DNA of 64,000 nt, taken from NCBI GenBank assembly GCA_050258455.1, contig JBLMYT010000012.1, positions 65,376 through 129,375 of the forward strand, in the 5' to 3' direction. Shown here one piece after another: positions 2,085 through 49,234 of the stretch. Under the pieces are notes generated by a model that worked only from the letters and a program-made list of their open reading frames with translations, did not search any database and had not been told where the DNA came from. Source of the stretch: Candidatus Omnitrophota bacterium (GTDB lineage: Bacteria; Acidobacteriota; Aminicenantia; UBA2199). The number at the start of each line of letters is the position of its first letter. Position 1 is the first letter of the stretch. Made by a program: the position numbers and the translations under genes.

Positions 2085-4523
2085 ATGAAAAAACACATAC
2101 CTTTATTTATATTACTATTTATATTACCTGTCTTATTGGTTATCACCGTCTCTTATTTGAAAGATGCCCGTGGTCCTTACTGGCTCGGCACAAATTCGGA
2201 TCCCGATTATGTCTACCTTCTCAATTCATCCAATATGGCGGATTTAAAGAAGGTCGGCCATATCGACCACCCCGGAACCCCGGTTCAAATGCTGGGCGCC
2301 GGCGTTTTACGCGTCGTTCATCTGTTCAGCTCCACCAAAGATAATCTCCATACGGATGTCTTAAAACGCCCTGAATTCTATTTGAATGCCATTAACGGGG
2401 TGCTTCTGGCACTTAATTTTTTCATGATCCTGCTGCTTGGCATCGGTGTATACCGATTGACCGGAAGCCTGATCCAAAGTCTGCTGCTTCAATTCACCCC
2501 GTTTCTGATCGAATCGGCAGCGACCGGCTGCCTGACCAAGGTCAACCCGGAGCCGTTCCTGTTTTTGACGGGTCTCCTCCTGGTCTTCTTTCTGGTCAAA
2601 TGGACCCGTTCGGACCCGCACGCGTTCACGTTCAAGGAACCGATTCTCTGCGGCATGATCATGGGGCTCGGTATTGCAACCAAAATGACGTTCCTTCCCC
2701 TGGCTGTTATCCCGTTTGTTGTGTTTCCGAAGATAAAGGCAAAGGCCGTGTATTTCGGTTCCTCCATTCTGAGTTTCGTGATGTTTACTTTGCCCATCAT
2801 CAATATGTACCCTAAATTTTTCGACTGGATCATGCGGCTCATGACGCGCGAGGGTCGATACGGAACCGGGAAAGAACAATTCATCGACTGGGACGCCTGC
2901 TTCAAAAATACGCAGCAACTGCTGACCGAAAACCGGTTTTTTACGTTCGTTCTCGGGTTGTCGATTCTGGTTCTTCTTGCCGGAATCCTGGTTCCAGTGC
3001 TGCGAAAACGGTTCGCTTCCAGCCGTTATTTTAAACTCATCGGTGCCGTGATTCTCTCGGACCTCCTGGCGATGTTTATGATTTCCAAACATACGGGCCA
3101 ACACTATCTGCTGCCGGTTCTGTCGTTATCCTGCTTTTCCTTATACCTGATCCACGCCTATGTTCACGAGGCTCTGAACCACTTCAAGATCAAAACCAAA
3201 TACCTGACGATGGCTTCGATTCTGGTGATGGCAGGTCTGATCATCTGGCTAAACCCGTATCGCGAAATGAAACAAACGGCAGGTGCATGGAAAATTGTTC
3301 GAAATAAATCCATTGAAATCAATGATTTTGTTCAACAAAACTATCAGGATTACGCCAGGATTTATTATTACGGCAGTTCGTCACCGGCGTTTGCCTTAAA
3401 GTTCGGAAACGATTTATCCCTGAATTATCACCGGGATGTGCTTCAGCGGTTGTATCCCGACGTTTATTTTTATGATTTCATTCATAAAGAGTTTTACGGT
3501 TTCAATTACAATGAGACCAATCCGATTGCCAAACTCCAGTTAACCTACAGATCGAAGATCGTGTTTCAGGGACCGGAATGGCTGGAGATTCCGGGATTAA
3601 AATTAAAACCGGTTCGGGGCGGGAAGTTCATGGAGCGAATTTTGGTTCTGGATCAAAAGGAGTTCAAGGCGTTTAATCTGATTCAGGAGTGGGTGGTCCA
3701 GCACATTCCCAAAGGTCAAACGCTGGTGGTACCCAAAGAAGCGGCCATTTATATTACCTCCCTTCAAGCGGATTACAACATTGTGCTTTTGGATATCAAG
3801 CGTTTGCAGAAACCCGCGTTTTTAAACATGGGAGTATTTTTGGAGAATCCCTACTTTCTCGTTCCGTTCGTATCTTTTTATGGGAAGAGTACGCTTCCCC
3901 CTCTATTTGAGGAACGGTTAGACGCCATGCGGTATTTTATCGACAGAGAGGCCCTATTGCCCAATGACGAAAAGCCTCGATTTTTCATCGGGCGATTAAA
4001 GAAGAGTGCGTTTGATTTCTCTTCCCTGAAATACAAAGAGCTTGCCGTCTGGCAACCGCTCGAGAAAAATCCGGCCAATATTTCGCCTGCCATGGAATCG
4101 TTGGATATGAAAGGGCAGTTTGGGAGTGCCTATCAATCCGATGGGGCGCGGAATTGTTTTGCGGTGTGGAACACGGCGCCTTCAACGGATGTGGATCCCG
4201 CGTTTTGGCTTTTGGGTTACATGGCCAACAACAAAGGTCTGGCGATCGATCTCGCGCGCGTGGATCGGGTGTATTTCGTATCCAAGATCTATGTCTCGGA
4301 CAATATGATGAATAAAGAAAACCACATGTTTATCCAGGATTTTTGCAAGGATTGGGAACGGGAAAAAGTGTTTTTTCCTGCGCCGGGTTGGTATACGTAT
4401 TACATGTCGAAGAAAATTCGTCCCGGAAGCGCCAAGCTGCTTTTCGGATGGCGGTTTACGCCCCGGAAACTTCAGGACAAGCTGATGGTTAAAGACGTCA
4501 AGGCGTATATTCTTTTTAAATAA
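2085..4523 (+). CDS. large polytopic membrane protein, paralog A; putative GT-C-like glycosyltransferase (DUF2723/PMT/ArnT-like architecture)
   Basis: 812 aa. An N-terminal TM is followed by a loop with a DPDY acidic motif, then about 10 hydrophobic helices and a roughly 450-aa soluble C-terminal domain. It shares the N-terminal block ARGPYWLG.NSDP.YVYLLN...VGHIDHPGTPVQ and the C-terminal block YYY.GSSP..ALKFG.DLS with the next gene. Confidence 0.55.
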   Translation: MKKHIPLFILLFILPVLLVITVSYLKDARGPYWLGTNSDPDYVYLLNSSNMADLKKVGHIDHPGTPVQMLGAGVLRVVHLFSSTKDNLHTDVLKRPEFYLNAINGVLLALNFFMILLLGIGVYRLTGSLIQSLLLQFTPFLIESAATGCLTKVNPEPFLFLTGLLLVFFLVKWTRSDPHAFTFKEPILCGMIMGLGIATKMTFLPLAVIPFVVFPKIKAKAVYFGSSILSFVMFTLPIINMYPKFFDWIMRLMTREGRYGTGKEQFIDWDACFKNTQQLLTENRFFTFVLGLSILVLLAGILVPVLRKRFASSRYFKLIGAVILSDLLAMFMISKHTGQHYLLPVLSLSCFSLYLIHAYVHEALNHFKIKTKYLTMASILVMAGLIIWLNPYREMKQTAGAWKIVRNKSIEINDFVQQNYQDYARIYYYGSSSPAFALKFGNDLSLNYHRDVLQRLYPDVYFYDFIHKEFYGFNYNETNPIAKLQLTYRSKIVFQGPEWLEIPGLKLKPVRGGKFMERILVLDQKEFKAFNLIQEWVVQHIPKGQTLVVPKEAAIYITSLQADYNIVLLDIKRLQKPAFLNMGVFLENPYFLVPFVSFYGKSTLPPLFEERLDAMRYFIDREALLPNDEKPRFFIGRLKKSAFDFSSLKYKELAVWQPLEKNPANISPAMESLDMKGQFGSAYQSDGARNCFAVWNTAPSTDVDPAFWLLGYMANNKGLAIDLARVDRVYFVSKIYVSDNMMNKENHMFIQDFCKDWEREKVFFPAPGWYTYYMSKKIRPGSAKLLFGWRFTPRKLQDKLMVKDVKAYILFK

Positions 4524-4595
4524 ATTAAAATCAATTTAAATAAAACTTCGCGTTTAAATAACCGTCGCGTATTTACCAAAAATAAAAGTTTTTTG

Positions 4596-4617
4596 CTACT
4601 TTTTTTCAAAAAAGTAG
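4596..4617. repeat. A/T-only perfect hairpin, CTACTTTTTT-(TC)-AAAAAAGTAG
   Basis: A perfect 10-bp inverted repeat read directly from the sequence, lying between paralogs A and B. Confidence 0.5.
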
Positions 4618-4657
4618 AAGAAAAGAAAGAAAGAAAGAAAAAAAAAGAAAAGAAAAA
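4618..4657. repeat. homopurine (GAAA/GAAAA)n tract abutting the start codon of paralog B
   Basis: The sequence gaagaaaagaaagaaagaaagaaaaaaaaagaaaagaaaaa sits immediately 5' of the ATG at 4658. It is a candidate slipped-strand or regulatory tract. Confidence 0.6.
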
Positions 4658-6241
4658 ATGAAACGAAAGCATTATCCTTATTTGTTCATCTTTCCCTTGC
4701 TGATGGTATTCATTGCCATACCGATGAATCGTGCGCGGGGGCCGTATTGGTTGGGGAGTAATCTGGATCCCGAGTACGTGTATTTGCTGAATGCCGACAA
4801 TTTGGCCGGGTTGCGGGGCGTCGGGCACATCGATCATCCGGGAACGCCCGTGCAGGTCATGGGGGCGTTAACGATCCGAGCCCTTCATTGTTTCAGTCGC
4901 GGAACCGATGATGTTCACACGGACGTGGTGAAGCGGCCCGAATATTATTTAAATGCCATGAATACGATTTTGGTATCGCTCAATGTGATCATGCTTTCTA
5001 TTCTGGGAATTGTTTCCCTGATATTAACCGGGAGTTTGGGGGTCAGTCTTTGGCTTCAGGCGTCGATGTTTTTATCGATCGTGATTTTGCAATTCGGATT
5101 AACGCGGGTCACGCCCGAGCCGCTTCTTTTTTTGGCAAGTATGATGATGATCGGTGCTGTCTTATATGCGGTTTCCTGCCTGAAGCAGGAGAAACCAACC
5201 GGACGTCTTCTCGTTTTATTTGCCCTCATTACCGGATTCGGTATGGCGTGTAAAGTGACGTTTTTGCCGTTGATGGTGATTCCCCTGATCGTATTACCGG
5301 GTATTAAAAACAAAATTTCTTATTTGGCTGCGTCGACCGTGGGGTTTGTCGTTTTTACGCTTCCCATTATTCGAATGTACAATCGGTTTTTCGGGTGGAT
5401 CCATCAGTTGGTGACTCATTCGGGGCATTATGGGAATGGGCCTTCGGGGCTGATATCGACCGGCCGGTTGATGGAGAATTTGAAGAGCCTGATTCTTCAT
5501 CATGCATTCTTTTCCATTTCGTTATCGATCGGTTTTTTGGTCCTGGTTGCCGGGTTTGGGGTTCCCCGGTTTCGGAACTTACGAAAAGTACCGGAATCTA
5601 ACCTTTATTTTAAATTTCTGGTTGCGGTGGTGATGGCGCAAGTGATCGGTTTGTTGATAGTATCCAAGCACGCTTCGGATCATTATTTATTACCGGTGCT
5701 CAGTCTCTCCGGCCTGGCGTTATTTTTTGTTTATTCTTTTGTTTACTCTTTTGTTTACTCTTATCTAAAAAATTTGGGAATTTCTTTCCGTGTATTATCG
5801 TGGGTGATTTTAGCCGCGTTGGTGATCGGTATTAATCCCTGGAATCAGATTCAGTCCCGAATCGACGCGTTCACGCGTTTGAAAGAAACATCGTTGGCGA
5901 TTCACCAACACGCGGTGGAAACTTACAGAGACTTTGCCAGGGTTTATTATTATACGGGGTCTTCGCCGGAGTATGCGTTGAAATTCGGGGATGATCTGTC
6001 GCGAAGTTACCATTCGGAAGCCTTGAACCGGATCTACAAAGACGTTTATTTTTACGATATTTGGACGCAGCGATTGACGCGATTCGATTACAACCGGGTG
6101 GAATCGTTGGAACGGATGCGTTCAACGTATGGGGATAAGATTTTGTTTCAAGGAACACCGGGTTTGAAGATTCCCGGGTTGGAATTAAAAAAAATATTCG
6201 ATAATCAATCGAAAGAACGGATTTCAATCATTCACCCTTGA
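4658..6241 (+). CDS. polytopic membrane protein, paralog B of the upstream gene; putative GT-C-like glycosyltransferase
   Basis: 527 aa. Conserved blocks with paralog A are clear. It contains an in-frame triplicated 12-nt repeat encoding VYSFVYSFVYSY. The function is unverified. Confidence 0.55.
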   Translation: MKRKHYPYLFIFPLLMVFIAIPMNRARGPYWLGSNLDPEYVYLLNADNLAGLRGVGHIDHPGTPVQVMGALTIRALHCFSRGTDDVHTDVVKRPEYYLNAMNTILVSLNVIMLSILGIVSLILTGSLGVSLWLQASMFLSIVILQFGLTRVTPEPLLFLASMMMIGAVLYAVSCLKQEKPTGRLLVLFALITGFGMACKVTFLPLMVIPLIVLPGIKNKISYLAASTVGFVVFTLPIIRMYNRFFGWIHQLVTHSGHYGNGPSGLISTGRLMENLKSLILHHAFFSISLSIGFLVLVAGFGVPRFRNLRKVPESNLYFKFLVAVVMAQVIGLLIVSKHASDHYLLPVLSLSGLALFFVYSFVYSFVYSYLKNLGISFRVLSWVILAALVIGINPWNQIQSRIDAFTRLKETSLAIHQHAVETYRDFARVYYYTGSSPEYALKFGDDLSRSYHSEALNRIYKDVYFYDIWTQRLTRFDYNRVESLERMRSTYGDKILFQGTPGLKIPGLELKKIFDNQSKERISIIHP

Positions 6242-6280
6242 CCGGAAGATTTCAAACACTATTTATCCGAATAAAAAAAT

Positions 6281-7288
6281 ATGGTATCATTACCTCAAAT
6301 GGCAAGGATCGTAAAAATAGTTTTTTTCTTTATTTTTTTATTTACAGGGATATCCTGCCTTGTTCAGGGTGAAGCCAACCCATCCGATCCCGAAATCACA
6401 CCGTTAAAATACAATTATTATTACGTTTTCAAAGGGGATGCCAAAGGGACCATCCTGCTTATTTTTCATTATCGGGTTTATTACGAAGCGTCCGCGTCGA
6501 TTCAGCTCATTGCCGAAAGACAAAACGACAACACTTACCAATTTAATTACGATACGGCCAAAAATGCCTACGTGGCCCGTACGCTGGGATTCGGCGGACG
6601 CAGTATGTGTGTCATGAACGCAGATTACGATATCCATCACAACCTCACATTTGCCCGCGAAATTGAGAATTATTTAAAAACAATCCCCTATTACTCGAAA
6701 TACATCACCTCTTCCGGAATTTATCCTTATGAGATCACCACCAAAGATAAAACTGCCGTGACCTTTACCCGTGATCCCGGCGGCAAGACCCGAGACATCA
6801 TCTGCGATTTAAAACTGGTTCCAAAATTCAAGGACGACAAATTCGATACCTATTTTCATGTGGATAAAATCATGCAGGAAACCCTGAGGTGCTTCAACCA
6901 TTCGTTCCTGCCACCGGGAAAAGAACTTCAAGAGCTTCTCTCTTACCTCAATAAAGAATGGTGGAGCGCTCCGATCGATTTTTCTGCGATTATGAATGAA
7001 ATCTCTCGCCTCATTTCCACATTCACGGAAAAATACGTTCGCCTGCAACAGGAGTCACCCATCCGAATCAAATACCGAATCGCTTCCGCCGATAATGCCA
7101 TGATCCATGTCCTGGGTGAAACTTACCCGAATATCGGGATATGGCAGGATTGGAGAATAAAAAAAGTGGTCCGCAATATCAAGCTGAGACCCTCGGATTT
7201 CCTTCTTCTTGAGGATGAAGTGATCGCGGATATCAGAAATAAAAAAGGAAACGGCGGTTTCCTGCATGCATATTTGAAAAAGTTATAA
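6281..7288 (+). CDS. secreted hypothetical protein with an N-terminal signal peptide
   Basis: A hydrophobic N-terminus (IVKIVFFFIFLFTGISCLVQG) followed by a Tyr/Asn-rich soluble domain. No recognisable catalytic motifs. Confidence 0.5.
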   Translation: MVSLPQMARIVKIVFFFIFLFTGISCLVQGEANPSDPEITPLKYNYYYVFKGDAKGTILLIFHYRVYYEASASIQLIAERQNDNTYQFNYDTAKNAYVARTLGFGGRSMCVMNADYDIHHNLTFAREIENYLKTIPYYSKYITSSGIYPYEITTKDKTAVTFTRDPGGKTRDIICDLKLVPKFKDDKFDTYFHVDKIMQETLRCFNHSFLPPGKELQELLSYLNKEWWSAPIDFSAIMNEISRLISTFTEKYVRLQQESPIRIKYRIASADNAMIHVLGETYPNIGIWQDWRIKKVVRNIKLRPSDFLLLEDEVIADIRNKKGNGGFLHAYLKKL

Positions 7289-7386
7289 CCGTGTTGAGTG
7301 GATTCTCCGGCAATCGAATCCGGCCGAGCATGAGTCCTATTTTTTTAATATATTTACAAAAAAATATATACTAGCATTCGATATTA

Positions 7387-7395
7387 TGATATAAT
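7387..7395 (+). promoter_or_regulatory. extended -10 promoter element (TGaTATAAT) upstream of the radical SAM operon
   Basis: tTGATATAATt lies about 48 nt upstream of the ATG at 7443. A strong ribosome-binding site (AAAGGAGAAGG) precedes the start codon. Confidence 0.4.
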
Positions 7396-7442
7396 TAAAC
7401 GCGCTATACTTATCCGAACTAGATTCCGAAAGGAGAAGGATC

Positions 7443-8534
7443 ATGAACATCGGTCGACTTACATTTGTCGTCACGGATGATTGCAACTTCAGATGCCGTT
7501 ACTGCTCCCAGGAAAAAAACGGAACTCGCATCACCCATCCCATCATTCGAAATGCTCTGGAATTTTTTTCTCCCTTTTTTATGGAGGACCTTGTCATGAA
7601 CTTTTATGGTGGGGAGCCGCTCCTGGCGTACGATTATATCCGTTATGCCGTTGAAATGACCAGGGAACTGATCGGAAACCGGAACATTGAATGTACGTTT
7701 GGGATTTCGACCAACGGCAGCCTGCTGAACGATGACATCCTCGCGTTTTTTGACGAGCATCGATTTTCCGTCCTCTTGAGCTTCGATGGTCTGGCTCAAG
7801 ACCTGAACCGCCAACCGGGCAGCTTTGACCAAATGGTCAAGATCCTGAAGCGCATTCAGGATTTTCCGGGAATTTACCTCGAGACCAACAGTGTATTTAA
7901 TCCCCAATCGGTTTCCATGCTTAGCGAATCCATGCGTTTTATGGTGGAACAGGGAAGCACCGCGGCCATGGTGGATGTGTCTTCAATCGATCCCTGGTCT
8001 GCCTCCGAAATCGCGAGTTTTGAAGAGCAATTCGAGCAACTCCGCGAATATTTGGTTTCTTACTATAAAACGCATCGCGTCATACCGGTGAGCAATTTCC
8101 AGGAAAACAAACGCACCCGCCTGTTCGGGTGCGGCGCCGGGAGCGGCCGAATGGCCATTGCCCCGGATGGAAAGCTCTGGGGATGCCCTCTTTTTTACGA
8201 TTATTTCAAGGGCAAGGAAAATACCCCGGATTATCGGAAATATTTCTTTGGAGACTTGGACACATTTATCGCCCACCATGAAACCATTCATCCGAATATT
8301 TTACTCCATTACGAGGAACTGAACCAGGATTATTTCTGCACGGACCATGGCTATTGTTTCATGTGCGACGAACTGGAAGAATGTGCGACTTGCCCCATTT
8401 TCGCCGCTCAAGCCAGCTCCGAACTGGGAAAGATTCCTTCCCGCGTTTGCGAACTGACCAAAATCCGGAGACGGGTAATAAAAGAATTTTATCAAGATAT
8501 AGCGCCAATCAAATCCATTCCCATGGATAATTGA
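7443..8534 (+). CDS. radical SAM / SPASM-domain peptide-modifying enzyme (AnSME/PqqE/AlbA superfamily)
   Basis: A CNFRCRYC (CxxxCxxC) motif at residues 14-21 and the glycine-rich motif GGEPLL. The C-terminal SPASM cysteine cluster reads GCGAG...GCP ... CTDHGYCFMCDELEECATCP. A strong ribosome-binding site is present. Confidence 0.85.
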   Translation: MNIGRLTFVVTDDCNFRCRYCSQEKNGTRITHPIIRNALEFFSPFFMEDLVMNFYGGEPLLAYDYIRYAVEMTRELIGNRNIECTFGISTNGSLLNDDILAFFDEHRFSVLLSFDGLAQDLNRQPGSFDQMVKILKRIQDFPGIYLETNSVFNPQSVSMLSESMRFMVEQGSTAAMVDVSSIDPWSASEIASFEEQFEQLREYLVSYYKTHRVIPVSNFQENKRTRLFGCGAGSGRMAIAPDGKLWGCPLFYDYFKGKENTPDYRKYFFGDLDTFIAHHETIHPNILLHYEELNQDYFCTDHGYCFMCDELEECATCPIFAAQASSELGKIPSRVCELTKIRRRVIKEFYQDIAPIKSIPMDN

Positions 8535-8560
8535 TAAAATCAAAAAAATTTGGAGGAAAA

Positions 8561-9094
8561 ATGAAAACTTTACAACAATCGAGTTTTAACGAAGCCGTTG
8601 TCCACATTCAGGATTTTCTGGATGCCTTTCCCGAAAATGACTTGTCCGGTGAATTAATGGAAAAGAAAGCGAACGCCATGAAGGCCATGAAACACATTGA
8701 ACGCATCCTGGGCCGGTCCTTTGATCAATTTGTTCACCCGGATTTGCAAGATCCGACCAATGCGAGTGTTCCCACCAACGTCAAACCGCTGGACCGGGCC
8801 TCCGGGGAGTGCTGCAATCGGATCTATGGTTCCGGGGTTAATAGAAGTGTTTCCACCAGCAACGTCAAACCGCTGGACCGGGCTTCCGGTGAATGCTGCA
8901 ATCGGATCTATGGTTCCGGGGTTAATGGAAGTGTTTCCACCAGCAACGTCAAGCCGCTGGACCGGGCTTCCGGTGAATGCTGTGATCGGATCTATGGTTC
9001 CGGGGTTAATGGAAGTGTTTCCACCAGCAACGTCAAGCCGCTGGACCGGGCTTCCGGTGAATGCTGTGACCGGATCTATGGCTCCGGGGTATAA
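8561..9094 (+). CDS. candidate multi-core RiPP precursor peptide: a roughly 75-aa leader plus about 4 tandem 28-aa core repeats (NVKPLDRASGECC[N/D]RIYGSGVNGSVSTS)
   Basis: GGAGG lies 5 nt upstream of the ATG at 8561; the ORF-track start at 8531 is less likely. It starts 27 nt after the radical SAM stop on the same strand. It contains 84-nt near-identical tandem repeats, each with an invariant CC and YGSG. Confidence 0.6.
   Translation: MKTLQQSSFNEAVVHIQDFLDAFPENDLSGELMEKKANAMKAMKHIERILGRSFDQFVHPDLQDPTNASVPTNVKPLDRASGECCNRIYGSGVNRSVSTSNVKPLDRASGECCNRIYGSGVNGSVSTSNVKPLDRASGECCDRIYGSGVNGSVSTSNVKPLDRASGECCDRIYGSGV
8777..9094 (+). repeat. 84-nt tandem direct repeat, 3 full copies plus one truncated copy, inside the precursor ORF
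   Basis: Copies start at 8777, 8861, 8945 and 9029. Copies 2-4 differ by only 1-3 nt. Opposite-strand and alternate-frame ORFs across this region are repeat artefacts. Confidence 0.9.
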
Positions 9095-9130
9095 GGGCAT
9101 CGTTTATTCAAACCGTTTAATGAAAATGTA

Positions 9131-12100
9131 ATGAAATGTAAGTCTCCCAACCGTCGTCTGTTGTATGGGACGGCTCTTATTTTTTTCCTTGTCTGTAGCA
9201 CCACGGGTTTGTTGGGGTTAGCGCCATGGAAAGCCGTTTCCCAGTACTCCTTAACCTTATGGGGGAAGCGGGAAGGGCTTCCCCAACAAACGGTATATGG
9301 GATCGCCCAAACGCCCAACGGTTACCTGTGGATCGCCACCATGGAAGGCCTGGTCCGGTTCGATGGGATCCGGTTTGTGACTTACAACAAGGGCAATACC
9401 CGCGAATTGAAATCCAATATTATCCTTTCGCTATTTGTCGATCGAGCGGGAACGCTCTGGATCGGAACCGCTTCCGGCGGACTGACCGTTTATAAAAATG
9501 GAAAATTCACGAATTACTCCTCGAAGCGGTTCGATTTTTTAAATGAGATCAAAGCCATCAATGCCGATCGGCGCAACAACCTATGGTTGGGGACCTCCCG
9601 GGGGCTCGTGTGTTTGACGAACGGCACCTTTAAGTTATACACGGAAAAAAACGGTTTTCCGGTCAAACGGATTCGAGCCCTATACCAGGCCCGCAGTGGG
9701 GATCTGTGGGCCGCCACATCAGCGGGGATCATCCAAATCATCGCGCCCGGAAAGTTTTCATCGATTTCAGCCACCCCACCCATTCTCGACGCACCGGCCA
9801 TCACCTTATGCGAAAAAGCCGATGCAATCTGGATCGGTACCGAAGGCGGATTGCTCCGGATGGACCGGTCCAACAAACCTATCCTCTGGAATAATGAGGA
9901 TTTTCTGCGATATCCCATCACTGCCCTGCTATGCGACAGCGATAATAATTTATGGATTGGAACCGATGGCAAAGGGCTCATCCGAGAACGCAACCATCGG
10001 TTTGAAACCCTCCCCCTCGATCCGGGAGCAACGACTTATAACTATGTGTTCACGATCATGGAAGATCAAGAGAAAAGCCTCTGGCTGGGAACGCTGGATG
10101 GCGGCCTGTGCCAGCTTAAGGATACGAAGGTAACCACTTATACCAGCGGAGAAGGCCTGTTGAACGATAGCGTCAATTGCATTTACGAAGATAGCCAGGC
10201 CCGAATCTGGGTTGGAACCGGCCGGGGGATCGACTGTTTTAAGAATTCGCAATATGACCCTACATTTAAAGTGAAAGATGAGTTGATCAACCAGAAAGTT
10301 TACGGGATATGCGTGGATAAATCGGATAATATGTGGGTGGCTACTATATCCGGCCTCTTTTTCTCATCCCGTGAAAAAAATGTCATGTACCGGGCCTTAA
10401 ACGGTTTATCCTTCAAGTCATCGAATTGCGTGCTTCAGGCCAGCGACGGCACGCTCTGGGTCGGAACCAATTCGGGACTGGTTTACATGAATAAAGGGAA
10501 GGTCGGCCGGTTTACAAAGAAAGACGGACTGTTAAGTAACTATATTTTTCGCCTTCTTGAAGATAAAGAAAAGAGTTTATGGATATGTACCCACCACGGA
10601 TTAAATCGGATCAAAAACGGAAAGATCGCCACTTTTGCCTTTAATGAGGCCAACGATGCTTTGGCGACAGGGGGAATCGAAGACAGAGACGGTTCACTCT
10701 GGTTTGGGTCGTTGAATGGTCTTGTCCGGATAAAAAATGACCGCATGTATACCTTTACCACCGATCATGGGTTAATCGATAATTATGTCTATGGCGTGCT
10801 CGAGGATGATTTCGGGAAACTTTGGCTTTCCGGAAGAAATGGTATTTCGAGCGTTTCGAAGAAAGAACTAAACGAGATTTCTGAAAAGAAAAGAGAAAAG
10901 CTGGGTTCGGTGATGCTGTACAAGGAAGACGATGGTATGCGATCCCGGTGGTGCACGCCCGGTGGCGCCTGCAAGACCCGGGATGGGAAACTTTGGTTTG
11001 CCACCAGTATGGGCGCCGTGTTGATCGACCCCCACCGGATGACCGCCAACCGACCCCCGCCGCCGGTGATTATCGAAGAATTTTTGGTCGATGGCGAACC
11101 GATCGATACCTTTGGGAAACAACCCATTCAACTCCCATCCGGAAAAAAACGGTTTGAATTTTATTACACCTCCCCCAGCTTTGTCTCGCCCCAGAATCTG
11201 AGGTTTAAAGTCAAACTGGATGATTTCGATTCGGATTGGATCGAACGCAACCATGAACGCAGTTTTACCTATACGCAATTGACCCCGGGATATTATACCT
11301 TCAATGTCATGATCGCTTCGGAAGACCCGACGCAAGGCGTGACCAAAGCATCGATATCCTTCTATTTAAAGCCCTTTTTTTACCAGACCGTCTGGTTTTA
11401 TATCCTCATCAGCCTGACGGCATTATTTATCATTCTTTCCCTTCATCGCATCCGGATCCAACACCTCAAAACCAGTGAAAAAAAATTAACCAACCTGGTC
11501 CAATTGCGGACCCAGGAACTCAACCGCAAAACCCTGGAGCTGGAAGAGGCCAATACCGATCTTCAACAATCCGCCCGGATTATCGAAGCCAAAAATCGCA
11601 ATATTCTGTCCAGCTTTGCCTATGCCGGGCGTATCCAACATTCGGTTCTTCCCGGCGATGAACGCATCAAAATGATCATGGACGATTACTTTATCTTATT
11701 CAAACCCAAAGATATCGTGTCCGGGGATTTCTACTGGTTTCATCGCAGCGAAGATAAGTACTTCATGGCCGTGGTGGATTGCACGGGACACGGCGTGCCT
11801 GGCGCGATTTTATCCATTATCGGCAGCATGACCCTGAACGATATCATCGATTCACGAATTATTTCCGATCCCGCTCAATTTCTTTACCATATGCATAAGG
11901 GCGTTCAGAACGTGTTAAAACAGGAATACACCGAACACATCTCCAACGACGGGATGGAAGCCGGTATGTGCATGATTGATTTTAGTAAAAAATTGATCAT
12001 GTTTGCCGGTGCCCGACGCCCCCTTTATTATATTAAAGATTCCCAATTTTTTGAAATTAAAGGCGATCAAAAATCCATTGGCGGCCACCAGAAACGAAGC

Positions 12101-12382
12101 GAGACCGAACGCCGATTTACCAACCACACGATTCCATTTGATTCGGAGATCATTTTTTATATGGTGACCGATGGATTTGCCGATCAAAACAATGCCGAAA
12201 ATAAAAAATACGGCTCCCTTCGCCTGAAAGAGTTTCTTCAGAATCATGCCCATCTCGAGATGGCGCGCCAAAAAGAAGCCCTTATCGAGGAACTAACCCA
12301 ATATCAAGGCTCGGAAGAACAACGCGACGACATTACGGTTACCGGATTCAAACCGATCTATATTAACCTCAACAACTTTTAG
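9131..12382 (+). CDS. membrane sensor: periplasmic two-component-regulator beta-propeller repeats + Y_Y_Y domain + TM + coiled coil + PP2C/SpoIIE-type Ser/Thr phosphatase
   Basis: An N-terminal signal/TM is followed by more than 10 repeats of the LW(I/V)GT..GL type. The Y_Y_Y-like block reads FEFYYTSPSF...YTFNV. The TM helix is VWFYILISLTALFIILSL. The C-terminal SpoIIE motifs are SGDFYWF, VVDCTGHG and MVTDGFADQ. Confidence 0.8.
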   Translation: MKCKSPNRRLLYGTALIFFLVCSTTGLLGLAPWKAVSQYSLTLWGKREGLPQQTVYGIAQTPNGYLWIATMEGLVRFDGIRFVTYNKGNTRELKSNIILSLFVDRAGTLWIGTASGGLTVYKNGKFTNYSSKRFDFLNEIKAINADRRNNLWLGTSRGLVCLTNGTFKLYTEKNGFPVKRIRALYQARSGDLWAATSAGIIQIIAPGKFSSISATPPILDAPAITLCEKADAIWIGTEGGLLRMDRSNKPILWNNEDFLRYPITALLCDSDNNLWIGTDGKGLIRERNHRFETLPLDPGATTYNYVFTIMEDQEKSLWLGTLDGGLCQLKDTKVTTYTSGEGLLNDSVNCIYEDSQARIWVGTGRGIDCFKNSQYDPTFKVKDELINQKVYGICVDKSDNMWVATISGLFFSSREKNVMYRALNGLSFKSSNCVLQASDGTLWVGTNSGLVYMNKGKVGRFTKKDGLLSNYIFRLLEDKEKSLWICTHHGLNRIKNGKIATFAFNEANDALATGGIEDRDGSLWFGSLNGLVRIKNDRMYTFTTDHGLIDNYVYGVLEDDFGKLWLSGRNGISSVSKKELNEISEKKREKLGSVMLYKEDDGMRSRWCTPGGACKTRDGKLWFATSMGAVLIDPHRMTANRPPPPVIIEEFLVDGEPIDTFGKQPIQLPSGKKRFEFYYTSPSFVSPQNLRFKVKLDDFDSDWIERNHERSFTYTQLTPGYYTFNVMIASEDPTQGVTKASISFYLKPFFYQTVWFYILISLTALFIILSLHRIRIQHLKTSEKKLTNLVQLRTQELNRKTLELEEANTDLQQSARIIEAKNRNILSSFAYAGRIQHSVLPGDERIKMIMDDYFILFKPKDIVSGDFYWFHRSEDKYFMAVVDCTGHGVPGAILSIIGSMTLNDIIDSRIISDPAQFLYHMHKGVQNVLKQEYTEHISNDGMEAGMCMIDFSKKLIMFAGARRPLYYIKDSQFFEIKGDQKSIGGHQKRSETERRFTNHTIPFDSEIIFYMVTDGFADQNNAENKKYGSLRLKEFLQNHAHLEMARQKEALIEELTQYQGSEEQRDDITVTGFKPIYINLNNF

Positions 12383-12396
12383 CGTTTCATTCGGGC

Positions 12397-15111
12397 TCAC
12401 ACCTTGGGGCTCATCTTCTCGATGCGGCAGGCCGTTTGTTTATAACCGGGAATCCGGGAATAGGGATCGAGTCGGTCGTTGGTGAGACGATTCGCTGCGG
12501 CTTCGGGGAAATGAAAATTCATAAATAATTCGCCTTTGTGCACGTATCGATTCTTCCGAATCGCGACCGTCATCTCGCCCCGGCGCGACACCAATTTAAC
12601 GGCCTCTCCCTCTTCCACGTCGAATGCGGCTGCATCGACCGGATGGATGTCCAGTACCGGTTGGGGATCATAGGCGCTTAACGGTCCGGATTTGAGGGAC
12701 ATGGTCCCGGTCAGGTATTGGTACAGGGAACGCCCGGTATTCAGCATCAAGGGGAACGCTCCGTCGACGTCCTCGCGCAGTTGTTCATGACCGACGGGAA
12801 CCAGCTTGGCCAGACCAATGGGGAAATCGTCCCTGTACAGGAGGGGCGTCCCCGGGTGATCGCAGGCAGGGCATGGCCATTGAATCTCCTCGTGTTCGAG
12901 CCGTTGGTAATTCACACCGGCATAACTGGGCGTGAGTGAGGCAATTTCGTCCATGATTTCAGCCGTTGACTCATAGGTCATGGGATAACCGAGACGGGTG
13001 GAGATGGCGGCAATGTACCGCCAGTCTTCCAGGCATTGCCCGGGCGGGTCTACGGCTTTTCGGACCCGCAAAATTCGGCGATCGGAATTACACACGGTTC
13101 CGTCTTTTTCTGCAAAACAGGCGGCCGGTAGTACCACATGGGCCAGGGCAGCAGTTTCGGTTAAAAAGATATCCTGAACCACCAGAAACTCCAGTTTTTT
13201 CAACGCCGCTTCGGTGTGATTGAGATTGGGATCGCTGACCATCGGGTTTTCCCCCATGATATAAACCGCTTTAACGGCTCCTTCGGCAGCCGCATGCATC
13301 AGTTCAATGGCGCTGAGTCCCGGGTTGGGATCGAGCTGGTTGGGCGGTACCTTCCAGGCATCCGCGAATTTTTTGCGAATGGTGTCATGGGAAACCGACT
13401 GATAACCGGGATAAAAGTCGCACATCGCCCCCATATCCGATGCGCCCTGAACATTATTCTGCCCCCGGAGCGGATTGATTCCCGTACCGATGCGGCCGAA
13501 GTTTCCTGTAATGAGAGCCATATCGATCAGTGCCAGACAATTGCGGGTTCCGTGCGTGCTCTGACTCATTCCCATACCGGTGATCACCGAGGCCCGTTCC
13601 GCTTTGCCGTAGAGGTGCGCGGCAGCCACGAGATCCGCGGCCGGTATCCCTGAAATCGCCTCGACGCGTGCCGGCGAGTAAGCCCGGGTAACCTCCTTTA
13701 ACCGGTGGAAAGCAGCGGTGCCGCCCTGGATTCGGTTTTGGATAAACGCATGGTCAACCATTTTGTCTGCGATGAGCACATGGATGAGGCCGTTGATGAC
13801 GGCAATATCGGAGCCGGGCCGTTGTCGGAGCCAGAGGGCGGCATGTTTGACCAGGTCCGTGTACCGGGGATCGATCACAATGATTTTGGCGCCGTTTCTT
13901 GCGGCACGCTTGACGTACGTGGCAGTGACCGGATGCGTTTCAATCACATTGGACCCGATGGCCAGGATGCAATCCGCGACCTCGAATTCCGGCAGCGCGT
14001 TTCCGGCAGCCCCGGTTCCCAATGTTTGACGCATGGCCGTCACGGTAGACGCATGGCATAATCGCGCGCAGTGTTCGACATTATTGGTGCCGATAACCGC
14101 CCGAAAGAATTTCTGGAACAGATAATTTTCCTCATTGAGACATTTGGCCGATGAATACCCCGCCAACGCCCGGCTCCCGTAGGCGGATTTGATCCGCGCC
14201 AATTGCTCGGCGATCGTATCCAATGCCGCCTCGCGGGTGGTTTCGACCAATTGTCCATTCTTTCGAACCAGAGGCCGAGTCAACCGCTCCGGGCTGTGAA
14301 TGAACTCAAAACCGAAACGGCCCTTGACACACAAACGCCCCTGATTGGGCAGGGATTCGTTTCCGGTGATGCGAACAACCGTTTCATCCTGGACCCATAA
14401 ATCCATTTGGCAACCGACGCCACAATACGGGCAACTGGTTTTGACCTTGCGTTGAATCCGATCGATATCGACCGTCTCGGTCTGAGGCTTTTCGACAAGG
14501 GCGCCGGTCGGGCACAACTGGATGCATTCGCCGCACCCATCGCATTCGGACTCCCGCCAATGGTCGAACCCGGCAGAGATGTAAGACCGAATGCCCCGGG
14601 CCGAAAAAGAAAGGACATTTTTTTGCTGGATCTCGTCGCATGCCTTCACGCATCGGAAACATTTGATGCATTTGGTGCCATCGTAAGCCAGCACGGGTGA
14701 GGTCTCATCGATCGGGTAGGCGAGGGAACCCAGGAGCGACGGAAAGGTGCGTTTGCTTTTGTCCTCCAGGTGGTATCGCCGAATCAGTGTTTTGAATTCA
14801 TCCTCATAGCTGCCGTCGTCCGCCTCATTGTGCTCGGACAGGAGCAGATCCAGGACATTTCGGCGGAGGGATTCCAGCTCGGCGTCAAATGCCGTGACCA
14901 CCATTCCCGGTACGATCGATACGCCGCAAGCAGCCGGAAAACCGGGAACGCCGGCGATCTTGACCAGGCATAACCGACACGCACCGGTCGGGCTGATCCG
15001 GTGATGAAAACAAAGACCGGGAATATCGAACCCATTGTCCCGGGCCGTTCGGAGAAGATTGGCCCCCTCGGGCGCATAAACGGTTTTCCCATCGATGAGA
15101 AGAGAAACCAT
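12397..15111 (-). CDS. fdsA: NAD-dependent formate dehydrogenase alpha subunit (FdsA-type: 2Fe-2S + 4Fe-4S + Mo-bisPGD), cysteine variant
   Basis: It begins MVSLLIDGKTV, a NuoG-like 2Fe-2S N-terminus. The 4Fe-4S motifs are CIKCFRC and CDGCGEC. The molybdopterin domain carries ARLCHASTV, aligning with FdhF RVUHGPSV with Cys in place of Sec. The start was chosen at the internal ATG; the ORF-track start at 15378 looks over-extended. Confidence 0.8.
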   Translation of the reverse strand: MVSLLIDGKTVYAPEGANLLRTARDNGFDIPGLCFHHRISPTGACRLCLVKIAGVPGFPAACGVSIVPGMVVTAFDAELESLRRNVLDLLLSEHNEADDGSYEDEFKTLIRRYHLEDKSKRTFPSLLGSLAYPIDETSPVLAYDGTKCIKCFRCVKACDEIQQKNVLSFSARGIRSYISAGFDHWRESECDGCGECIQLCPTGALVEKPQTETVDIDRIQRKVKTSCPYCGVGCQMDLWVQDETVVRITGNESLPNQGRLCVKGRFGFEFIHSPERLTRPLVRKNGQLVETTREAALDTIAEQLARIKSAYGSRALAGYSSAKCLNEENYLFQKFFRAVIGTNNVEHCARLCHASTVTAMRQTLGTGAAGNALPEFEVADCILAIGSNVIETHPVTATYVKRAARNGAKIIVIDPRYTDLVKHAALWLRQRPGSDIAVINGLIHVLIADKMVDHAFIQNRIQGGTAAFHRLKEVTRAYSPARVEAISGIPAADLVAAAHLYGKAERASVITGMGMSQSTHGTRNCLALIDMALITGNFGRIGTGINPLRGQNNVQGASDMGAMCDFYPGYQSVSHDTIRKKFADAWKVPPNQLDPNPGLSAIELMHAAAEGAVKAVYIMGENPMVSDPNLNHTEAALKKLEFLVVQDIFLTETAALAHVVLPAACFAEKDGTVCNSDRRILRVRKAVDPPGQCLEDWRYIAAISTRLGYPMTYESTAEIMDEIASLTPSYAGVNYQRLEHEEIQWPCPACDHPGTPLLYRDDFPIGLAKLVPVGHEQLREDVDGAFPLMLNTGRSLYQYLTGTMSLKSGPLSAYDPQPVLDIHPVDAAAFDVEEGEAVKLVSRRGEMTVAIRKNRYVHKGELFMNFHFPEAAANRLTNDRLDPYSRIPGYKQTACRIEKMSPKV

Positions 15112-15170
15112 GGCCCGCGGCGCGCGCGCTCCCTGCCCATCCGGTGAATTTAAGCGATTGTACCTGATTT

Positions 15171-16469
15171 TCATTGGCTCTCTCCTTTTAGGGGGTGGAG
15201 TAATTCGGACTCGAAGTAACGGGCAGCCGTCCGAATGGGCAGGAGCGGGGATTGGCCCAACGGGCAGAGCGATGTTTGGGTCATGAGTTCCGCCAGATCG
15301 ATGATCGGTTCCAGGCGGGTGGGACCGGATCGGAGCCGTTCCAGCAACTGGATACACCCCACCCGGCAGGGCACGCATTTGCCGCAGGATTCGTGGGCAA
15401 AGAACCGGATGAGTTCTTGCAGGAAATCGCTCAGGGACCGGTCTTGGGCCAGAACGATGATGGCCCCGGAACCCAGGAGAAACCCGTTGGCGCTCAGGCT
15501 CTCGAAATCCATGGGGATGTCGATGGCGTCCGGCGGAATGAACGTGCCGGCTGCGCCGCCGACCAGGACGGTTTTCAGGGCTTTCCCATCCCGGATTCCC
15601 CCGGCCAGATCGAGTAACCGGTTCAAGGGAATACCCATTTCGGTTTCATAACATCCGGGTATTTGGACATCGCCGCAAATTGCGAATATTTTGGTGCCGG
15701 GGGATCGAGGCGTTCCCATGGCGCGGTACCATTCCGCGCCATTTCGGATGATTTCAGGGACATGAGCCAGCGTCTCCACGTTGTTGACCAGTGTCGGCGC
15801 ATTAAAGATGCCGCGTTGTGCCGGGTATGGCGGCTTGATGCGGGGATACGCCCGCTTGCCTTCGATGGATTCGATGAGGGCCGATTCCTCGCCCGCCAGA
15901 TACGAACCCCCTCCGATACGAATCCGGATATCCAGGGAGAACGGGGTACTCAGAATCTTTTTTCCGAGCAGTCCCCGGGCGCGGGCACTGGCCAGCGCGG
16001 CCCGGATGGCCCGAATGGATGCCCCATATTCCGCGCGAATGTAAATATACGCGGTTGAAGCGCCCAGGGCATAAGCGGCAATCATCATCCCCTCAAGAAC
16101 CGCATGCGGATCGCGTTCCATGATCTCCCGGTCTTTAAAGGTACCGGGTTCCCCTTCGTCGGCGTTGCAACACACGTATTTGGTTTGACCTTCAGCGGCC
16201 CGGGTGAATTGCCACTTTAAACCCGTTGGAAATCCGCCCCCCCCGCGGCCCCGCAGGCCCGACGCCATGATCTCCTCAATAACCGTTTCCGGCAGAACTT
16301 CCAGGGCTTTTTGGAACCCCTGGTATCCGCCGGCAGCAATATAATCGTCGATATCGAACGGATCGATTTGTCCCGCATGGCGTAAACCGATTCGTACTTC
16401 TTGGATTCTATCCGTTTTGTCGGTTTGGTTCATTTCGTTCATTTCGCTCATGATGCCCCTCCACCCCAT
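15171..16469 (-). CDS. fdsB: formate dehydrogenase beta subunit / NADH-binding flavoprotein (NuoF-like, FMN + 4Fe-4S)
   Basis: GGGGFPTGLKW (FMN/NADH site) and ESCGKCVPCRVG (4Fe-4S motif). Its position between the gamma-like and alpha genes fits an FdsGBA operon. Confidence 0.85.
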   Translation of the reverse strand: MGWRGIMSEMNEMNQTDKTDRIQEVRIGLRHAGQIDPFDIDDYIAAGGYQGFQKALEVLPETVIEEIMASGLRGRGGGGFPTGLKWQFTRAAEGQTKYVCCNADEGEPGTFKDREIMERDPHAVLEGMMIAAYALGASTAYIYIRAEYGASIRAIRAALASARARGLLGKKILSTPFSLDIRIRIGGGSYLAGEESALIESIEGKRAYPRIKPPYPAQRGIFNAPTLVNNVETLAHVPEIIRNGAEWYRAMGTPRSPGTKIFAICGDVQIPGCYETEMGIPLNRLLDLAGGIRDGKALKTVLVGGAAGTFIPPDAIDIPMDFESLSANGFLLGSGAIIVLAQDRSLSDFLQELIRFFAHESCGKCVPCRVGCIQLLERLRSGPTRLEPIIDLAELMTQTSLCPLGQSPLLPIRTAARYFESELLHPLKGESQ

Positions 16470-16920
16470 CGATCAGCGTCCGGAGTTTATCCTCCGTTAA
16501 ATTCCCATAAATGTCGTTGTCCAGCATTAGAACCGGGGCTCGGTCGCACTGACCCAGGCATTCGCACGGCTCCAGAGTGAAGCGCCCATCGGGAGTCGAT
16601 TCCCCTTCCCGAATTCCCAGGATTTGTTTTAAGATATCCATCATATCCACTCCCCCCATGAGTCGGCAAACCGGGGAGATGCACAGGCGGATCACATGAC
16701 GCCCTCTCGGTTTTAAGCTGAACATGGAATAATAGCTCACCACGCCATACACGGTGCTGCGCGTGGTGTTTAAATACCGGGCCACAGCATCGAGGGCTTC
16801 GCGTTTCAAATAGTTCTGCGGATGGTTGTTCTGAAGGTCGTGAAGAATCAGCAGCATGTTTTCGCTGACCGGTTCGTATTTTTTTAAAATGGATTCTGTC
16901 GAACGCATTTCCCCGCTCAT
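16408..16920 (-). CDS. fdsG: formate dehydrogenase gamma subunit / NuoE-like 2Fe-2S thioredoxin-fold protein
   Basis: The motifs CISPVCRL...CECLGQCDRAPV. The ATG at 16920 is preceded by GAGGAGG. The ORF-track start at 16935 appears to be a GTG. It overlaps fdsB by 62 nt. Confidence 0.8.
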   Translation of the reverse strand: MSGEMRSTESILKKYEPVSENMLLILHDLQNNHPQNYLKREALDAVARYLNTTRSTVYGVVSYYSMFSLKPRGRHVIRLCISPVCRLMGGVDMMDILKQILGIREGESTPDGRFTLEPCECLGQCDRAPVLMLDNDIYGNLTEDKLRTLIDGVEGHHERNERNEPNRQNG

Positions 16921-17004
16921 CGTTCCCCTCCTCACACAAGCACTCGCCCCTCTCTCACACTGACTGTATCAGATTCAAATCAAAAAAGCAATAATTTTTT
17001 TTGC

Positions 17005-30800: not shown

Positions 30801-31108
30801 TAAATATCGGTGCCATCCTGAAAAATGACATACACGTACGAAAACCCAAAATCGGAAAACCCACGAATGGCTTTGACCCGTGGCGCACCCAGTAATGAGG
30901 TAATGATCGGATACGTGACCTGGTCTTCCATAATGTCCGGGGAACGGTCCCATTGGGTGTAGATGATTACCTGCGTGTCCGACAGGTCGGGGATCGCGTC
31001 CAGCGGGATGTGGTGCAACACATATACGGCATAAATGACGATGCCGATTGTCATGAAGATGACGAGTAACCGGTTATGAGCGGAAAACTCAATGATGCGT
31101 TTAATCAT
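27806..31108 (-). CDS. cusA: heavy-metal efflux RND permease (CusA/CzcA, HME family)
   Basis: 1100 aa. The N-terminus is typical of CusA. About 12 TM helices and two large periplasmic loops. Confidence 0.9.
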   Translation of the reverse strand: MIKRIIEFSAHNRLLVIFMTIGIVIYAVYVLHHIPLDAIPDLSDTQVIIYTQWDRSPDIMEDQVTYPIITSLLGAPRVKAIRGFSDFGFSYVYVIFQDGTDIYWARSRVLEYLAKIQGTLPEGARTQLGPDATGVGWVYQYALVDRSGKHNLAEIRSYQDWYLRYALQSVPGVAEIAGIGGFQKQYQVIIDPNRLQGYRIPITAIVEAIRKNNNEVGGRLIEWTGREYMVRARGYIKSTSDLEKIVIRSDMNGTPVLLRDVASVTIGPQIRRGIADLDGQGDTVGGIVIMRQGENAHTVIARVKEKLESLKSSLPEGVEVVTTYDRSELIDRSIDNLKEELLLEMIIVSLVILFFLWHIPSALVPILTIPISVLLAFIPMFAARISSNIMSLAGIAISIGVLVDGAIVEVENAYKKLELWEEGGRKGDFHAIRLEALMEVGPSVFFSLLVIAVSFLPVFTLVDQEGRLFKPLAYTKTLTIAMAALLAVTLDPAVRMSFTRMDPFGFRPRWLAKLTNTVLVGRYYKEDTHPVSRVLFRLYEGPCRFVLRHPWKVILMAVLLVAVSLPVYFHLGREFMPPLNEGTILYMPTTLPGISVTEAQRLMELEDRVLKSFPEVVSVFGKAGRADTSTDPAPFSMMETTIILKPQSQWRHQERWYSSWAPGILKAILRPVWPDRISWEELINEMNRALQIPGNTNAWTMPIKARIDMLTTGVRTPVGIKILGSDLNEIQRLGEAMEKALKDVPGTRSVFAERAAGGFFIDFTPRREDLARYGLTVDDVQMTIMAAIGGETVTTTVEGRERYSVNVRYARAFRETIDELEQVLVPTMTGAQVRMSEIADISISSGPSMIRDENGMLAGYVFVDVADRDVGSYVTDARKVIQDHVKLPTGYSLIWSGQYENMQRVKERLKLVIPITVILIFLLLYMNTRSAFKSFVVMLAVPFSVVGAVWLMFILNYNISIAAWVGMIALMGLDAETGVFMLLFLELSYEDAKRRNRLNTKEELQDAVVHGAVKRIRPKMMTVCAAALGLMPIMWSMGTGADVMKRVAAPMVGGLFTSFLMELLVYPPIYYLWRLTFFDTPNQKAENRFAFKEKTGNQKP

Positions 31109-31131
31109 TTTTATTCAAGTTATCTCATGTC

Positions 31132-48947: not shown

Positions 48948-49234
48948 TGCAAAACCCTCCAAATTCGAATTGAATTCATGAACTATTTTACACCATTCTC
49001 TTTAAAAAAGGAATAGAGGGGATCGTTTGGGAAAAATTTCTCCGTTCCTTTTGCCGTTATTTAGCGACTTAGAAACCTGGCGCGCGACGTCTCCCGTCTC
49101 ATTTCGCACAAAATAATTAGTCAATGAGTAATAAAATAATCGTTGCACGCCAGTTTCCCCTGATGAAAATAATCCTTGACAAAATTGAAATAAAAACTTA
49201 TGATTGTATCTGTAATATAGGTACAGATAAAAAT

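Follow-up and report, generated by a model that had tools for sequence, protein, structure and literature searches.

Why would a radical SAM (rSAM) peptide maturase and its probable precursor peptide be encoded directly in front of a large transmembrane (TM) receptor, and could the receptor answer to the peptide? This question is raised by a three-gene cassette in a 64,000-nucleotide stretch of contig JBLMYT010000012.1 from a Candidatus Omnitrophota bacterium, the whole of which is called the window here. The cassette consists of an rSAM/SPASM maturase, a precursor with four tandem cores, and a sensor in which a periplasmic propeller domain is joined to a phosphatase. All three genes lie on the + strand (Table 1), with gaps of 26 nucleotides (nt) between rSAM and precursor and 36 nt between precursor and sensor. 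An earlier note on this stretch had proposed a peptide-sensing circuit, and the gene content and coordinates that it gave are borne out by the open reading frames (ORFs), their translations and their domain matches. The link between the three genes is not chance, and they are part of a conserved and apparently undescribed module, as judged from their sequences and those of their relatives. We class the three genes as a signalling cassette in which a modified peptide and a receptor are encoded together. In our judgement, it is about an even bet that the receptor has the peptide as its ligand, so that the cassette makes both a ribosomal peptide signal and the receptor for it.

The linkage was followed in both directions. 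Forward contexts were obtained by look-ups of rSAM homologues and by a scan of species-representative genomes, and in these the rSAM homologues nearly always have as neighbours a small ORF and a large signalling protein that spans the membrane. Homologues with 37–46% identity adjoin sensors with Reg_prop and Y_Y_Y domains in the related loci L001/2, L003 (twice), L004, L005, L007, L009 and L019. These sensors are 35–42% identical to the periplasmic part of the window sensor, and their output is either a PP2C phosphatase or a HisKA-HATPase-REC-AraC module. In the reverse test, metagenomes were scanned for proteins related to the periplasmic domain, and 80 loci at 30–39% identity were returned. 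None of these 80 out-of-clade sensor loci has a homologous rSAM, and none has a match to the precursor hidden Markov model (HMM) described below.

The rSAM-linked sensors, including that of the window, form a single periplasmic-domain clade with a neighbour-joining (NJ) bootstrap of 197/200 among 89 sequences. The same clade, with 54 members, was recovered at 100/100 after the top 119 database matches had been added (214 sequences). It shuts out 77 metagenome relatives as well as three other Reg_prop sensors found on module-bearing contigs. Its members are essentially only proteins with PP2C output (~1085 amino acids, aa) or with the AraC-type output of a hybrid two-component system (HTCS; ~1340 aa), while the HisKA_3, GGDEF, PAS-kinase and kinase-fused relatives fall outside. 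One in-clade sensor, the Omnitrophota-labelled P0137, has a GGDEF output.

A homologous rSAM is adjacent to the sensor in 13 of the 15 in-clade loci examined, and a 14th has homologous precursors only. Compared with 0 of 80 outside the clade, this gives a Fisher p of 3e-14, or 4e-11 when near-duplicates are merged and loci with less than 1.5 kb of upstream flank are set aside. The conserved synteny of rSAM, peptide and sensor that the earlier note asked about is thus a property of this clade and not of the broad Reg_prop/Y_Y_Y family. A sensor standing mostly alone, which that note had named as the outcome that would speak against a circuit, would be the picture only if relatives were defined loosely.

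Within the clade, the window's order of rSAM, precursor (68–84 aa in these relatives) and sensor-PP2C recurs in L166, L168, L172 and L173. L174 has the order precursor, rSAM, HTCS, and in L170 two precursor genes lie immediately 5′ of the sensor with no rSAM within 6 kb. The precursor can be 5′ or 3′ of the rSAM, and the sensor is upstream in L019. In-clade sensors with the HisKA-HATPase-REC-AraC output are found in L003, L009, L171 and L174. One group of loci (L002/L003b/L005/L007/L009) is present in both the rSAM tree and the sensor tree. Three elements stay constant, namely precursor, rSAM and periplasmic domain, whereas the output in the cytoplasm is either PP2C or the AraC-type hybrid two-component module. 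This is the pattern expected if ligand synthesis travels with the input domain, and the constancy of these three elements amid varying gene order and output is the chief ground for preferring the peptide as ligand over a sensor that regulates the peptide.

A second, conserved AraC-type HTCS is encoded 5′ of the module in L001 (466-4617), L009 (580-4785) and L174 (121-4287), with 48–54% mutual identity. The periplasmic parts of those in L001 and L009 are ~20–25% identical to the window and L002 sensors, and both lie outside the clade. In L170 this position is occupied by a 712-aa cytoplasmic REC-HK-REC-AraC protein. Lying 5′ of the precursor, the second HTCS of L001, L009 and L174 hints that some versions of the module have separate “production” and “reception” sensors.

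About 17 other rSAM loci carry a different convergent partner of ~1030 aa, with a zinc ribbon, a Hanks kinase, one TM segment and a ~650-aa periplasmic TPR region. The 3′ end of the rSAM gene lies tail-to-tail with this Hanks-kinase/TPR gene, often with overlapping ends, in L008, L010, L011, L013-L018, L021-L023, L025 and L034. The Hanks Ser/Thr kinase/TPR protein is a second receptor type for the same family of peptides synthesised on ribosomes and modified after translation (RiPPs), served by a sister rSAM subfamily. Its large periplasmic TPR input beside the peptide genes of that subfamily was counted in favour of the peptide as ligand.

The maturase is recognised by Pfam as Radical_SAM (50.6 bits, cut-off 29.5), and it has the features of a radical SAM/SPASM RiPP maturase, namely a CX3CX2C motif, SPASM cysteines, and an adjacent precursor with a leader and a target residue. 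The CX3CX2C motif (C14/C18/C21) and a seven-cysteine SPASM tail (C230, C248, C305, C308, C314, C317 and C336) are invariant in an alignment of 31 family members. The cysteines of the tail are spaced as C230-X12-G-X4-C248, then C305-X2-C308-X5-C314-X2-C317 and C336. The canonical SPASM spacing is CX2CX5CX3C, from which the CX2CX5CX2C of the window is one residue off. The best curated model is PapB (NF047865), which scores 125 bits against a cut-off of 340 (118–146 bits in the relatives). By this score the window enzyme falls outside the PapB family of ranthipeptide maturases, although no curated model is closer. Maturases of that family form a thioether from Cys to a non-alpha carbon of Asp or Glu in motifs of the CX3D type. 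Among solved structures, the best match is the thioether maturase CteB (5wgg, E 5e-16), of which residues 1–99 are unmatched. No NCBIfam model reaches its cut-off for the family rSAMs, and no NCBIfam or Pfam model covers the precursors. The nearest homologues have ~46% identity among more than 1000 matches, mostly from Aminicenantes.

The precursor begins with a leader of ~66–70 aa. An 84-nt repeat then recurs in 3.8 copies, 95% identical and free of indels, to give four 28-aa cores. Each repeat translates as ..NVKPLDRASGECC[N/D]RIYGSGVNGSVSTS, reading on as RIYGSGV after [N/D], and the cores are rich in Ser and Thr. An identical 177-aa product is annotated in NCBI. A homology search of a 5.8-billion-protein set with the precursor returned only itself, its core sequence being a singleton, and an exact-sequence look-up returned no contig; homology is therefore demonstrable solely through the leader HMM. 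This HMM rests on 22 precursors from related loci and does not include that of the window. Among 1179 six-frame segments of the window, the precursor was its sole significant match (E 3e-6, next 0.73), aligned over leader residues 1–53.

The family leader has two helices (..N[VI]xKC[FIL]xLL[RK][ED][FY]... and ..ALxQLxxI..) and often ends in AG or GG. The family core is short, with the pattern C-x-x-x-P-[RK], PRI around an invariant Cys, the only one, which lies 6–15 residues from the core end in the 22 relatives. Most family cores have no acidic partner or CX3D, and the window cores read E-C-C-[N/D]. Precursors with several cores recur in the family, with six cores in L010 (214-708, copies of GCEGGKPVIKGTKEDATY), four in L028 (3422-3685, copies of GCGEGSPIKGEGMA) and two in L009 (5888-6151, copies of EPGCLGRPIADR), so the four-repeat precursor of the window is no oddity.

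The sensor has Pfam matches to Reg_prop (189 bits, cut-off 20.4), Y_Y_Y (41.2 bits, cut-off 26.6, residues 684-744) and SpoIIE (66 bits, residues 874-1070). A hydropathy scan finds hydrophobic segments at residues 10-28 and 753-771, which place residues ~30-750 in the periplasm and the PP2C domain in the cytoplasm. The architecture read earlier, a periplasmic propeller/Y_Y_Y module fused to an intracellular SpoIIE/PP2C output, agrees with both analyses. The periplasmic domain matches structures of Bacteroides HTCS proteins (4a2l, E 1e-56; 3v9f; 3va6). The cytoplasmic HisKA-HATPase-receiver-AraC module of an HTCS is absent from the window sensor, which has SpoIIE/PP2C in its place.

The phosphatase domain aligns end to end with the structure of the SiaA PP2C domain (6k4e, E 1e-48, 34% identity over 267 residues), and the two share the metal-site motifs GDFY, VVDCxGHGVPGA, TDGFxDQ and QRDDIT. 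The NCBIfam model for SiaA (NF038263) gives 227 bits against a cut-off of 700 and covers only model positions 367-656 of 658. On these matches the window protein is not a SiaA equivalog; its N-terminal part is propeller/Y_Y_Y and not HAMP. In L166 and L168, a divergent operon abutting the rSAM encodes a GGDEF protein (SiaD), a kinase of the SiaB family that scores 180 bits (cut-off 85), and SiaC (PF09345). In Pseudomonas aeruginosa, where this partner switch has been demonstrated experimentally, the phosphorylation state of SiaC-T68 depends on SiaA and SiaB, and SiaC activates the diguanylate cyclase SiaD (PMC7647112, PMC8457831). Given SiaD, SiaB and SiaC beside the module in L166 and L168, the output there is a partner switch feeding cyclic di-GMP (c-di-GMP) synthesis. 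Partner switching had been guessed earlier from the phosphatase; that part holds, with SiaB/C/D-type partners in place of the STAS and anti-sigma proteins then expected.

Taken together, these components suggest the following mechanism. The rSAM/SPASM enzyme would recognise the helical leader of the 177-aa precursor and install a radical-mediated cross-link at the cysteine or cysteines of each of the four cores, probably a thioether by analogy with PapB and CteB. The cores would then be freed and exported by functions encoded elsewhere, and in the periplasm the peptide would bind the double β-propeller/Y_Y_Y domain of the co-encoded receptor. Ligand occupancy would be relayed across the membrane to the SiaA-type PP2C phosphatase, which would dephosphorylate a SiaC-type partner-switch protein, and the free form of this protein would activate a diguanylate cyclase. 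Peptide density would thus be coupled to c-di-GMP and to aggregation or biofilm behaviour, and in sister loci the same periplasmic domain is wired to an AraC-type hybrid two-component output. For the window we infer the peptide's role as a signal, the modification chemistry, export and processing, and the downstream partners. A wider proposal is that the family is an undescribed, widespread class of diderm peptide pheromones (in Aminicenantes and Omnitrophota), in which an rSAM-cross-linked peptide would be the ligand of an HTCS-type domain with SiaABCD/c-di-GMP or AraC output, with the Hanks-kinase/TPR loci as a sister branch. This proposal is tentative, and we would put it somewhat short of even. 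If true, it would provide the first non-glycan ligand for the propeller/Y_Y_Y fold.

Several observations weigh against the peptide as ligand. Adjacency cannot distinguish an input from a regulated output, and to our knowledge all known ligands of solved Reg_prop/Y_Y_Y domains are glycans, none of them a peptide. The precursor leader has no signal peptide. The earlier note had remarked on the lack of a dedicated exporter or leader protease in the cluster; there is none among the scanned ORFs of the window (peptidase-containing ABC transporters (PCATs) and ABC exporters included), and none is conserved in related loci, which leaves the access of the peptide to the periplasm unexplained. Pfam scans covered 48 of the 53 greedily selected ORFs of at least 70 aa, all but five small ones (73–108 aa). 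No SiaB/C/D, STAS, RsbW-like or GGDEF protein was found among these, and tblastn of the L166 SiaB, SiaC and SiaD proteins against the window gave nothing, so the partners of the PP2C domain would have to be encoded elsewhere. Among the relatives, the in-clade sensor of L171 has neither rSAM nor precursor. The sensor-linked rSAMs form one NJ clade nested among kinase-linked rSAMs with a bootstrap of 79/200, and the trees are NJ trees on automatic alignments. Finally, nearly all relatives are Aminicenantes-type metagenome-assembled genomes (MAGs), so that part of the linkage could be inherited synteny.

In the most serious alternative, the receptor would respond to some extracytoplasmic cue unrelated to the peptide, for example nutrient status or, as Bacteroides HTCS do, a glycan, and would govern the peptide's production or use, with the RiPP as an output (antimicrobial, cofactor-like or effector). 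Sensing would then need no exporter. Bacteroides HTCS proteins, which have the same fold by the structure matches above, are generally known to adjoin the loci that they control. The AraC-HTCS variants of L003, L009 and L174 could activate the adjacent precursor and rSAM genes, and the second AraC-HTCS type, which in L001, L009 and L174 lies 5′ of the precursor, also suits such control. However, this explanation predicts a constant output with variable sensors, and the reverse is seen. A DNA-binding output is missing from the PP2C variants, which in L166 and L168 pair with SiaBCD, which points to c-di-GMP and not to RiPP transcription. Moreover, the sensor gene is downstream within the same apparent operon as its would-be targets. 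We consider regulation of the peptide by the receptor unlikely, yet an alternative to be reckoned with.

The remaining explanations are much less probable. A mature peptide that hits the cell envelope, with the receptor detecting the stress or giving the producer self-protection in the manner of lantibiotic LanRK or Bce-type systems, was raised in the earlier note and is compatible with the linkage data, and RiPP clusters are generally known to include damage-sensing or immunity regulators often. It is made improbable by the lack of a conserved immunity transporter or lipoprotein beside the module in the related loci examined, by a clade-specific 750-aa ligand-binding domain that exceeds the need of generic stress sensing, and by the four copies of a short core, which suit a signal more than a toxin. 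An equally poor prospect is a peptide that stays in the cytoplasm, where it would modulate the phosphatase, kinase or HTCS moiety or be a phospho-substrate of the PP2C domain and of the sister-locus Hanks kinases. The absence of an exporter, protease and signal peptide would fit, as would the Ser/Thr-rich cores of a module that pairs with a Ser/Thr phosphatase or a Ser/Thr kinase. Yet it is the periplasmic domain that tracks the module, whereas unrelated HTCS modules take the place of the cytoplasmic part, and several leaders, read by eye, have double-glycine-like ends (..LQKITAG|, ..QLFGG|) typical of exported peptides. Inherited synteny with no functional connection would account for the origin of most examples in one phylum-level MAG group. 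It is very improbable as the whole explanation, since the linkage holds at 35–46% protein identity and through reordering, output swaps and Omnitrophota and Aminicenantes labels; since other Reg_prop sensors on the same contigs lie outside the clade; and in view of the contrast of 13/15 with 0/80.

The spacing of the three genes is operon-like, which makes a single transcript plausible. The earlier note had placed the sensor 37 nt after the precursor; the short same-strand gap is real, but the true spacer is 36 nt, 37 being what one counts from the final base of the stop codon to the initial base of the start codon. Co-transcription of precursor and sensor is likewise plausible from this spacing. 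A consensus scan of 9000-9131 found no terminator-like site, in line with the earlier reading that no hairpin or T-run separates the two genes, and no promoter-like site. From 6870 to 10754, the + strand has a single promoter-like site, putative and recognised by consensus match only, which precedes the rSAM (Table 1). The terminator-like hairpin closest to the junction (9153-9174) was considered as an attenuator and rejected, as it is weak and lies within the sensor ORF, as terminator-like sites are about as frequent in the region as chance predicts (8 observed, 8.9 expected), and as RNA folding of 9050-9200 gives no unusual structure (z = 0.34). The sensor has no Shine-Dalgarno sequence, in contrast to the rSAM and precursor genes, and its ATG overlaps the stop of a three-codon mini-ORF. 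These two features could reflect low or coupled translation of the receptor, or chance. No GC-content island was seen at the module.

Table 1. Positions of the cassette, its parts and the genes directly upstream (window coordinates)
Feature	Position	Strand	Remarks
Paralogous membrane proteins, 9-10 TM	2085-4523 (812 aa), 4658-6241 (527 aa)	+	Just 5′ of module
Signal-peptide (secreted) protein, 335 aa	6281-7288	+	After 527-aa ORF
Promoter-like site TTAATA-16-TATACT	7345-7372	+	AT-rich gap 5′ of rSAM; 9/12 consensus matches; candidate operon promoter
Radical SAM/SPASM peptide maturase	7443-8534	+	363 aa; no N-terminal RiPP recognition element (RRE) extension; ribosome-binding site AAGGAG
Precursor	8561-9094	+	177 aa; ATG preceded by GGAGG
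Precursor leader (residues 1 to ~70)	8561-8770	+	Predicted helical
Four tandem core repeats	8772-9090	+	84-nt period; each with GECC[N/D]RIYGSGV
Spacer between precursor and sensor	9095-9130	+	36 nt; no terminator, promoter-like site or Shine-Dalgarno sequence
Mini-ORF ATG AAA ATG TAA	9120-9131	+	Stop overlaps sensor ATG (TAATG)
Transmembrane receptor	9131-12382	+	1083 aa; signal/TM1, double β-propeller + Y_Y_Y, TM2, coiled coil, SiaA-type PP2C
Periplasmic sensor domain (residues ~35-750)	9233-11380	+	Reg_prop repeats, then Y_Y_Y at nt 11180-11362
Second TM helix (residues 753-771)	11387-11443	+	Hydropathy scan
PP2C (SpoIIE-family) domain, SiaA-like	11750-12340	+	Catalytic motifs intact

The three same-strand ORFs upstream of the module (812, 527 and 335 aa) were considered as exporter or processing genes and set aside, as they have no Pfam or NCBIfam match and no homologue in related loci. 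By eye, the topology of the 812- and 527-aa proteins resembles that of GT-C/ArnT-type glycosyltransferases. In L006, a HlyD-type adaptor and an 852-aa protein (4365-8141) lie directly 3′ of the rSAM, where they replace the receptor; this HlyD protein is the only candidate linked exporter seen in the family loci. The window also has a Cus-like RND efflux operon (27806-33824, − strand) with an AcrB-family pump, a HlyD-type adaptor in which a heavy-metal-binding domain is present, and an outer-membrane factor; metal efflux is its assigned type, and it has no link to the peptide genes. The sole c-di-GMP-related gene in the window encodes an EAL and HDOD protein (49124-50467, + strand).

Immediately beyond the sensor lies a convergent NAD-linked set of the formate dehydrogenase type (12397-16935, − strand), which comprises FdhA, a NuoF-like subunit and a NuoE-like thioredoxin-type ferredoxin. 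The stop codons of the sensor (12382) and of the formate dehydrogenase alpha gene (12397-15378, − strand) are 14 nt apart, and neither gene has a terminator-like site. FdhA has a NuoG-like 2Fe-2S/4Fe-4S N-terminus and scores 775 bits to TIGR01591. Its listed ORF overlaps that of NuoF by ~200 nt, so its start is probably further downstream. Elsewhere (55262-56567, + strand), a stand-alone receiver domain protein is encoded directly 5′ of a second radical SAM protein (Radical_SAM + Radical_SAM_C).

Peptide cell-cell signalling is well documented in Firmicutes and rarely in double-membrane bacteria, and we know of no signalling chemistry from the uncultured host phyla. If the peptide is the ligand, it would be the first peptide ligand for sensors of the Reg_prop/Y_Y_Y kind, among which thousands lack a known ligand. 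It would also give a defined input to a SiaA-type phosphatase and connect c-di-GMP and aggregation behaviour with a new rSAM RiPP family. If instead the receptor regulates the peptide, the pairing would still be new, compact and conserved, and receptor adjacency would mark this RiPP family in genome mining. With only three genes, the cassette can be tested directly, through expression in a heterologous host and through binding assays, although the organisms that carry it are uncultured.

No description of the module was found in the open-access literature searched or in the curated models queried, and by the criteria that define each, the cassette's proteins are not a PapB equivalog, an HTCS or a SiaA equivalog. 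The maturase resembles PapB and CteB in its radical SAM core with CX3CX2C, in its seven-cysteine SPASM domain and in the adjacent precursor with a conserved Cys in short cores, and the repeated cores of the window precursor recall PapA. The chemistry of PapB has been described (PMC9413430). The window enzyme differs from PapB in a score far under the cut-off of 340 and in a family whose cores mostly lack CX3D, and from CteB in having no N-terminal RRE extension, the region to which longer SPASM-maturase models align their first ~80–100 positions. In addition, PapB and SCIFF loci are not paired with a membrane receptor. With the Bacteroides HTCS proteins (BT4663; 4a2l, 3v9f, 3va6), the sensor has in common the Reg_prop propellers and Y_Y_Y between two TM segments, and in-clade relatives also have the full HisKA-HATPase-REC-AraC output. 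In contrast, the window protein has PP2C in place of kinase, receiver and AraC, and it is tied to a RiPP cassette and not to a polysaccharide utilisation locus, with a putative peptide ligand and not a glycan.

The P. aeruginosa SiaABCD system is matched by the homologous PP2C domain with its metal-binding motifs, and in L166 and L168 by an adjacent SiaB-family kinase, SiaC and GGDEF protein. SiaA itself has two TM segments and HAMP but no large periplasmic propeller, and SiaABCD is reported to respond in P. aeruginosa to surfactant stress and to the availability of carbon (PMC7647112). Here no SiaB/C/D is encoded in the window, and the proposed input is a peptide.

The closest parallels in organisation are the agr AIP/AgrC, ComX/ComP and nisin/NisK systems, in which precursor, modifying enzyme and membrane receptor are co-encoded. 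The same three components stand together here, with gaps of 26 and 36 nt and a conserved linkage. Those systems belong to monoderm Firmicutes and use histidine kinases with small extracellular loops and known exporters and proteases. The present cassette comes from a diderm, employs an rSAM enzyme, a 750-aa periplasmic propeller and an output by Ser/Thr dephosphorylation, and has no dedicated exporter or leader protease among the scanned ORFs of the window and none that is conserved in related loci. A peptide that binds and activates its receptor, with a density-dependent response, is a further mark of such autoinducing systems.

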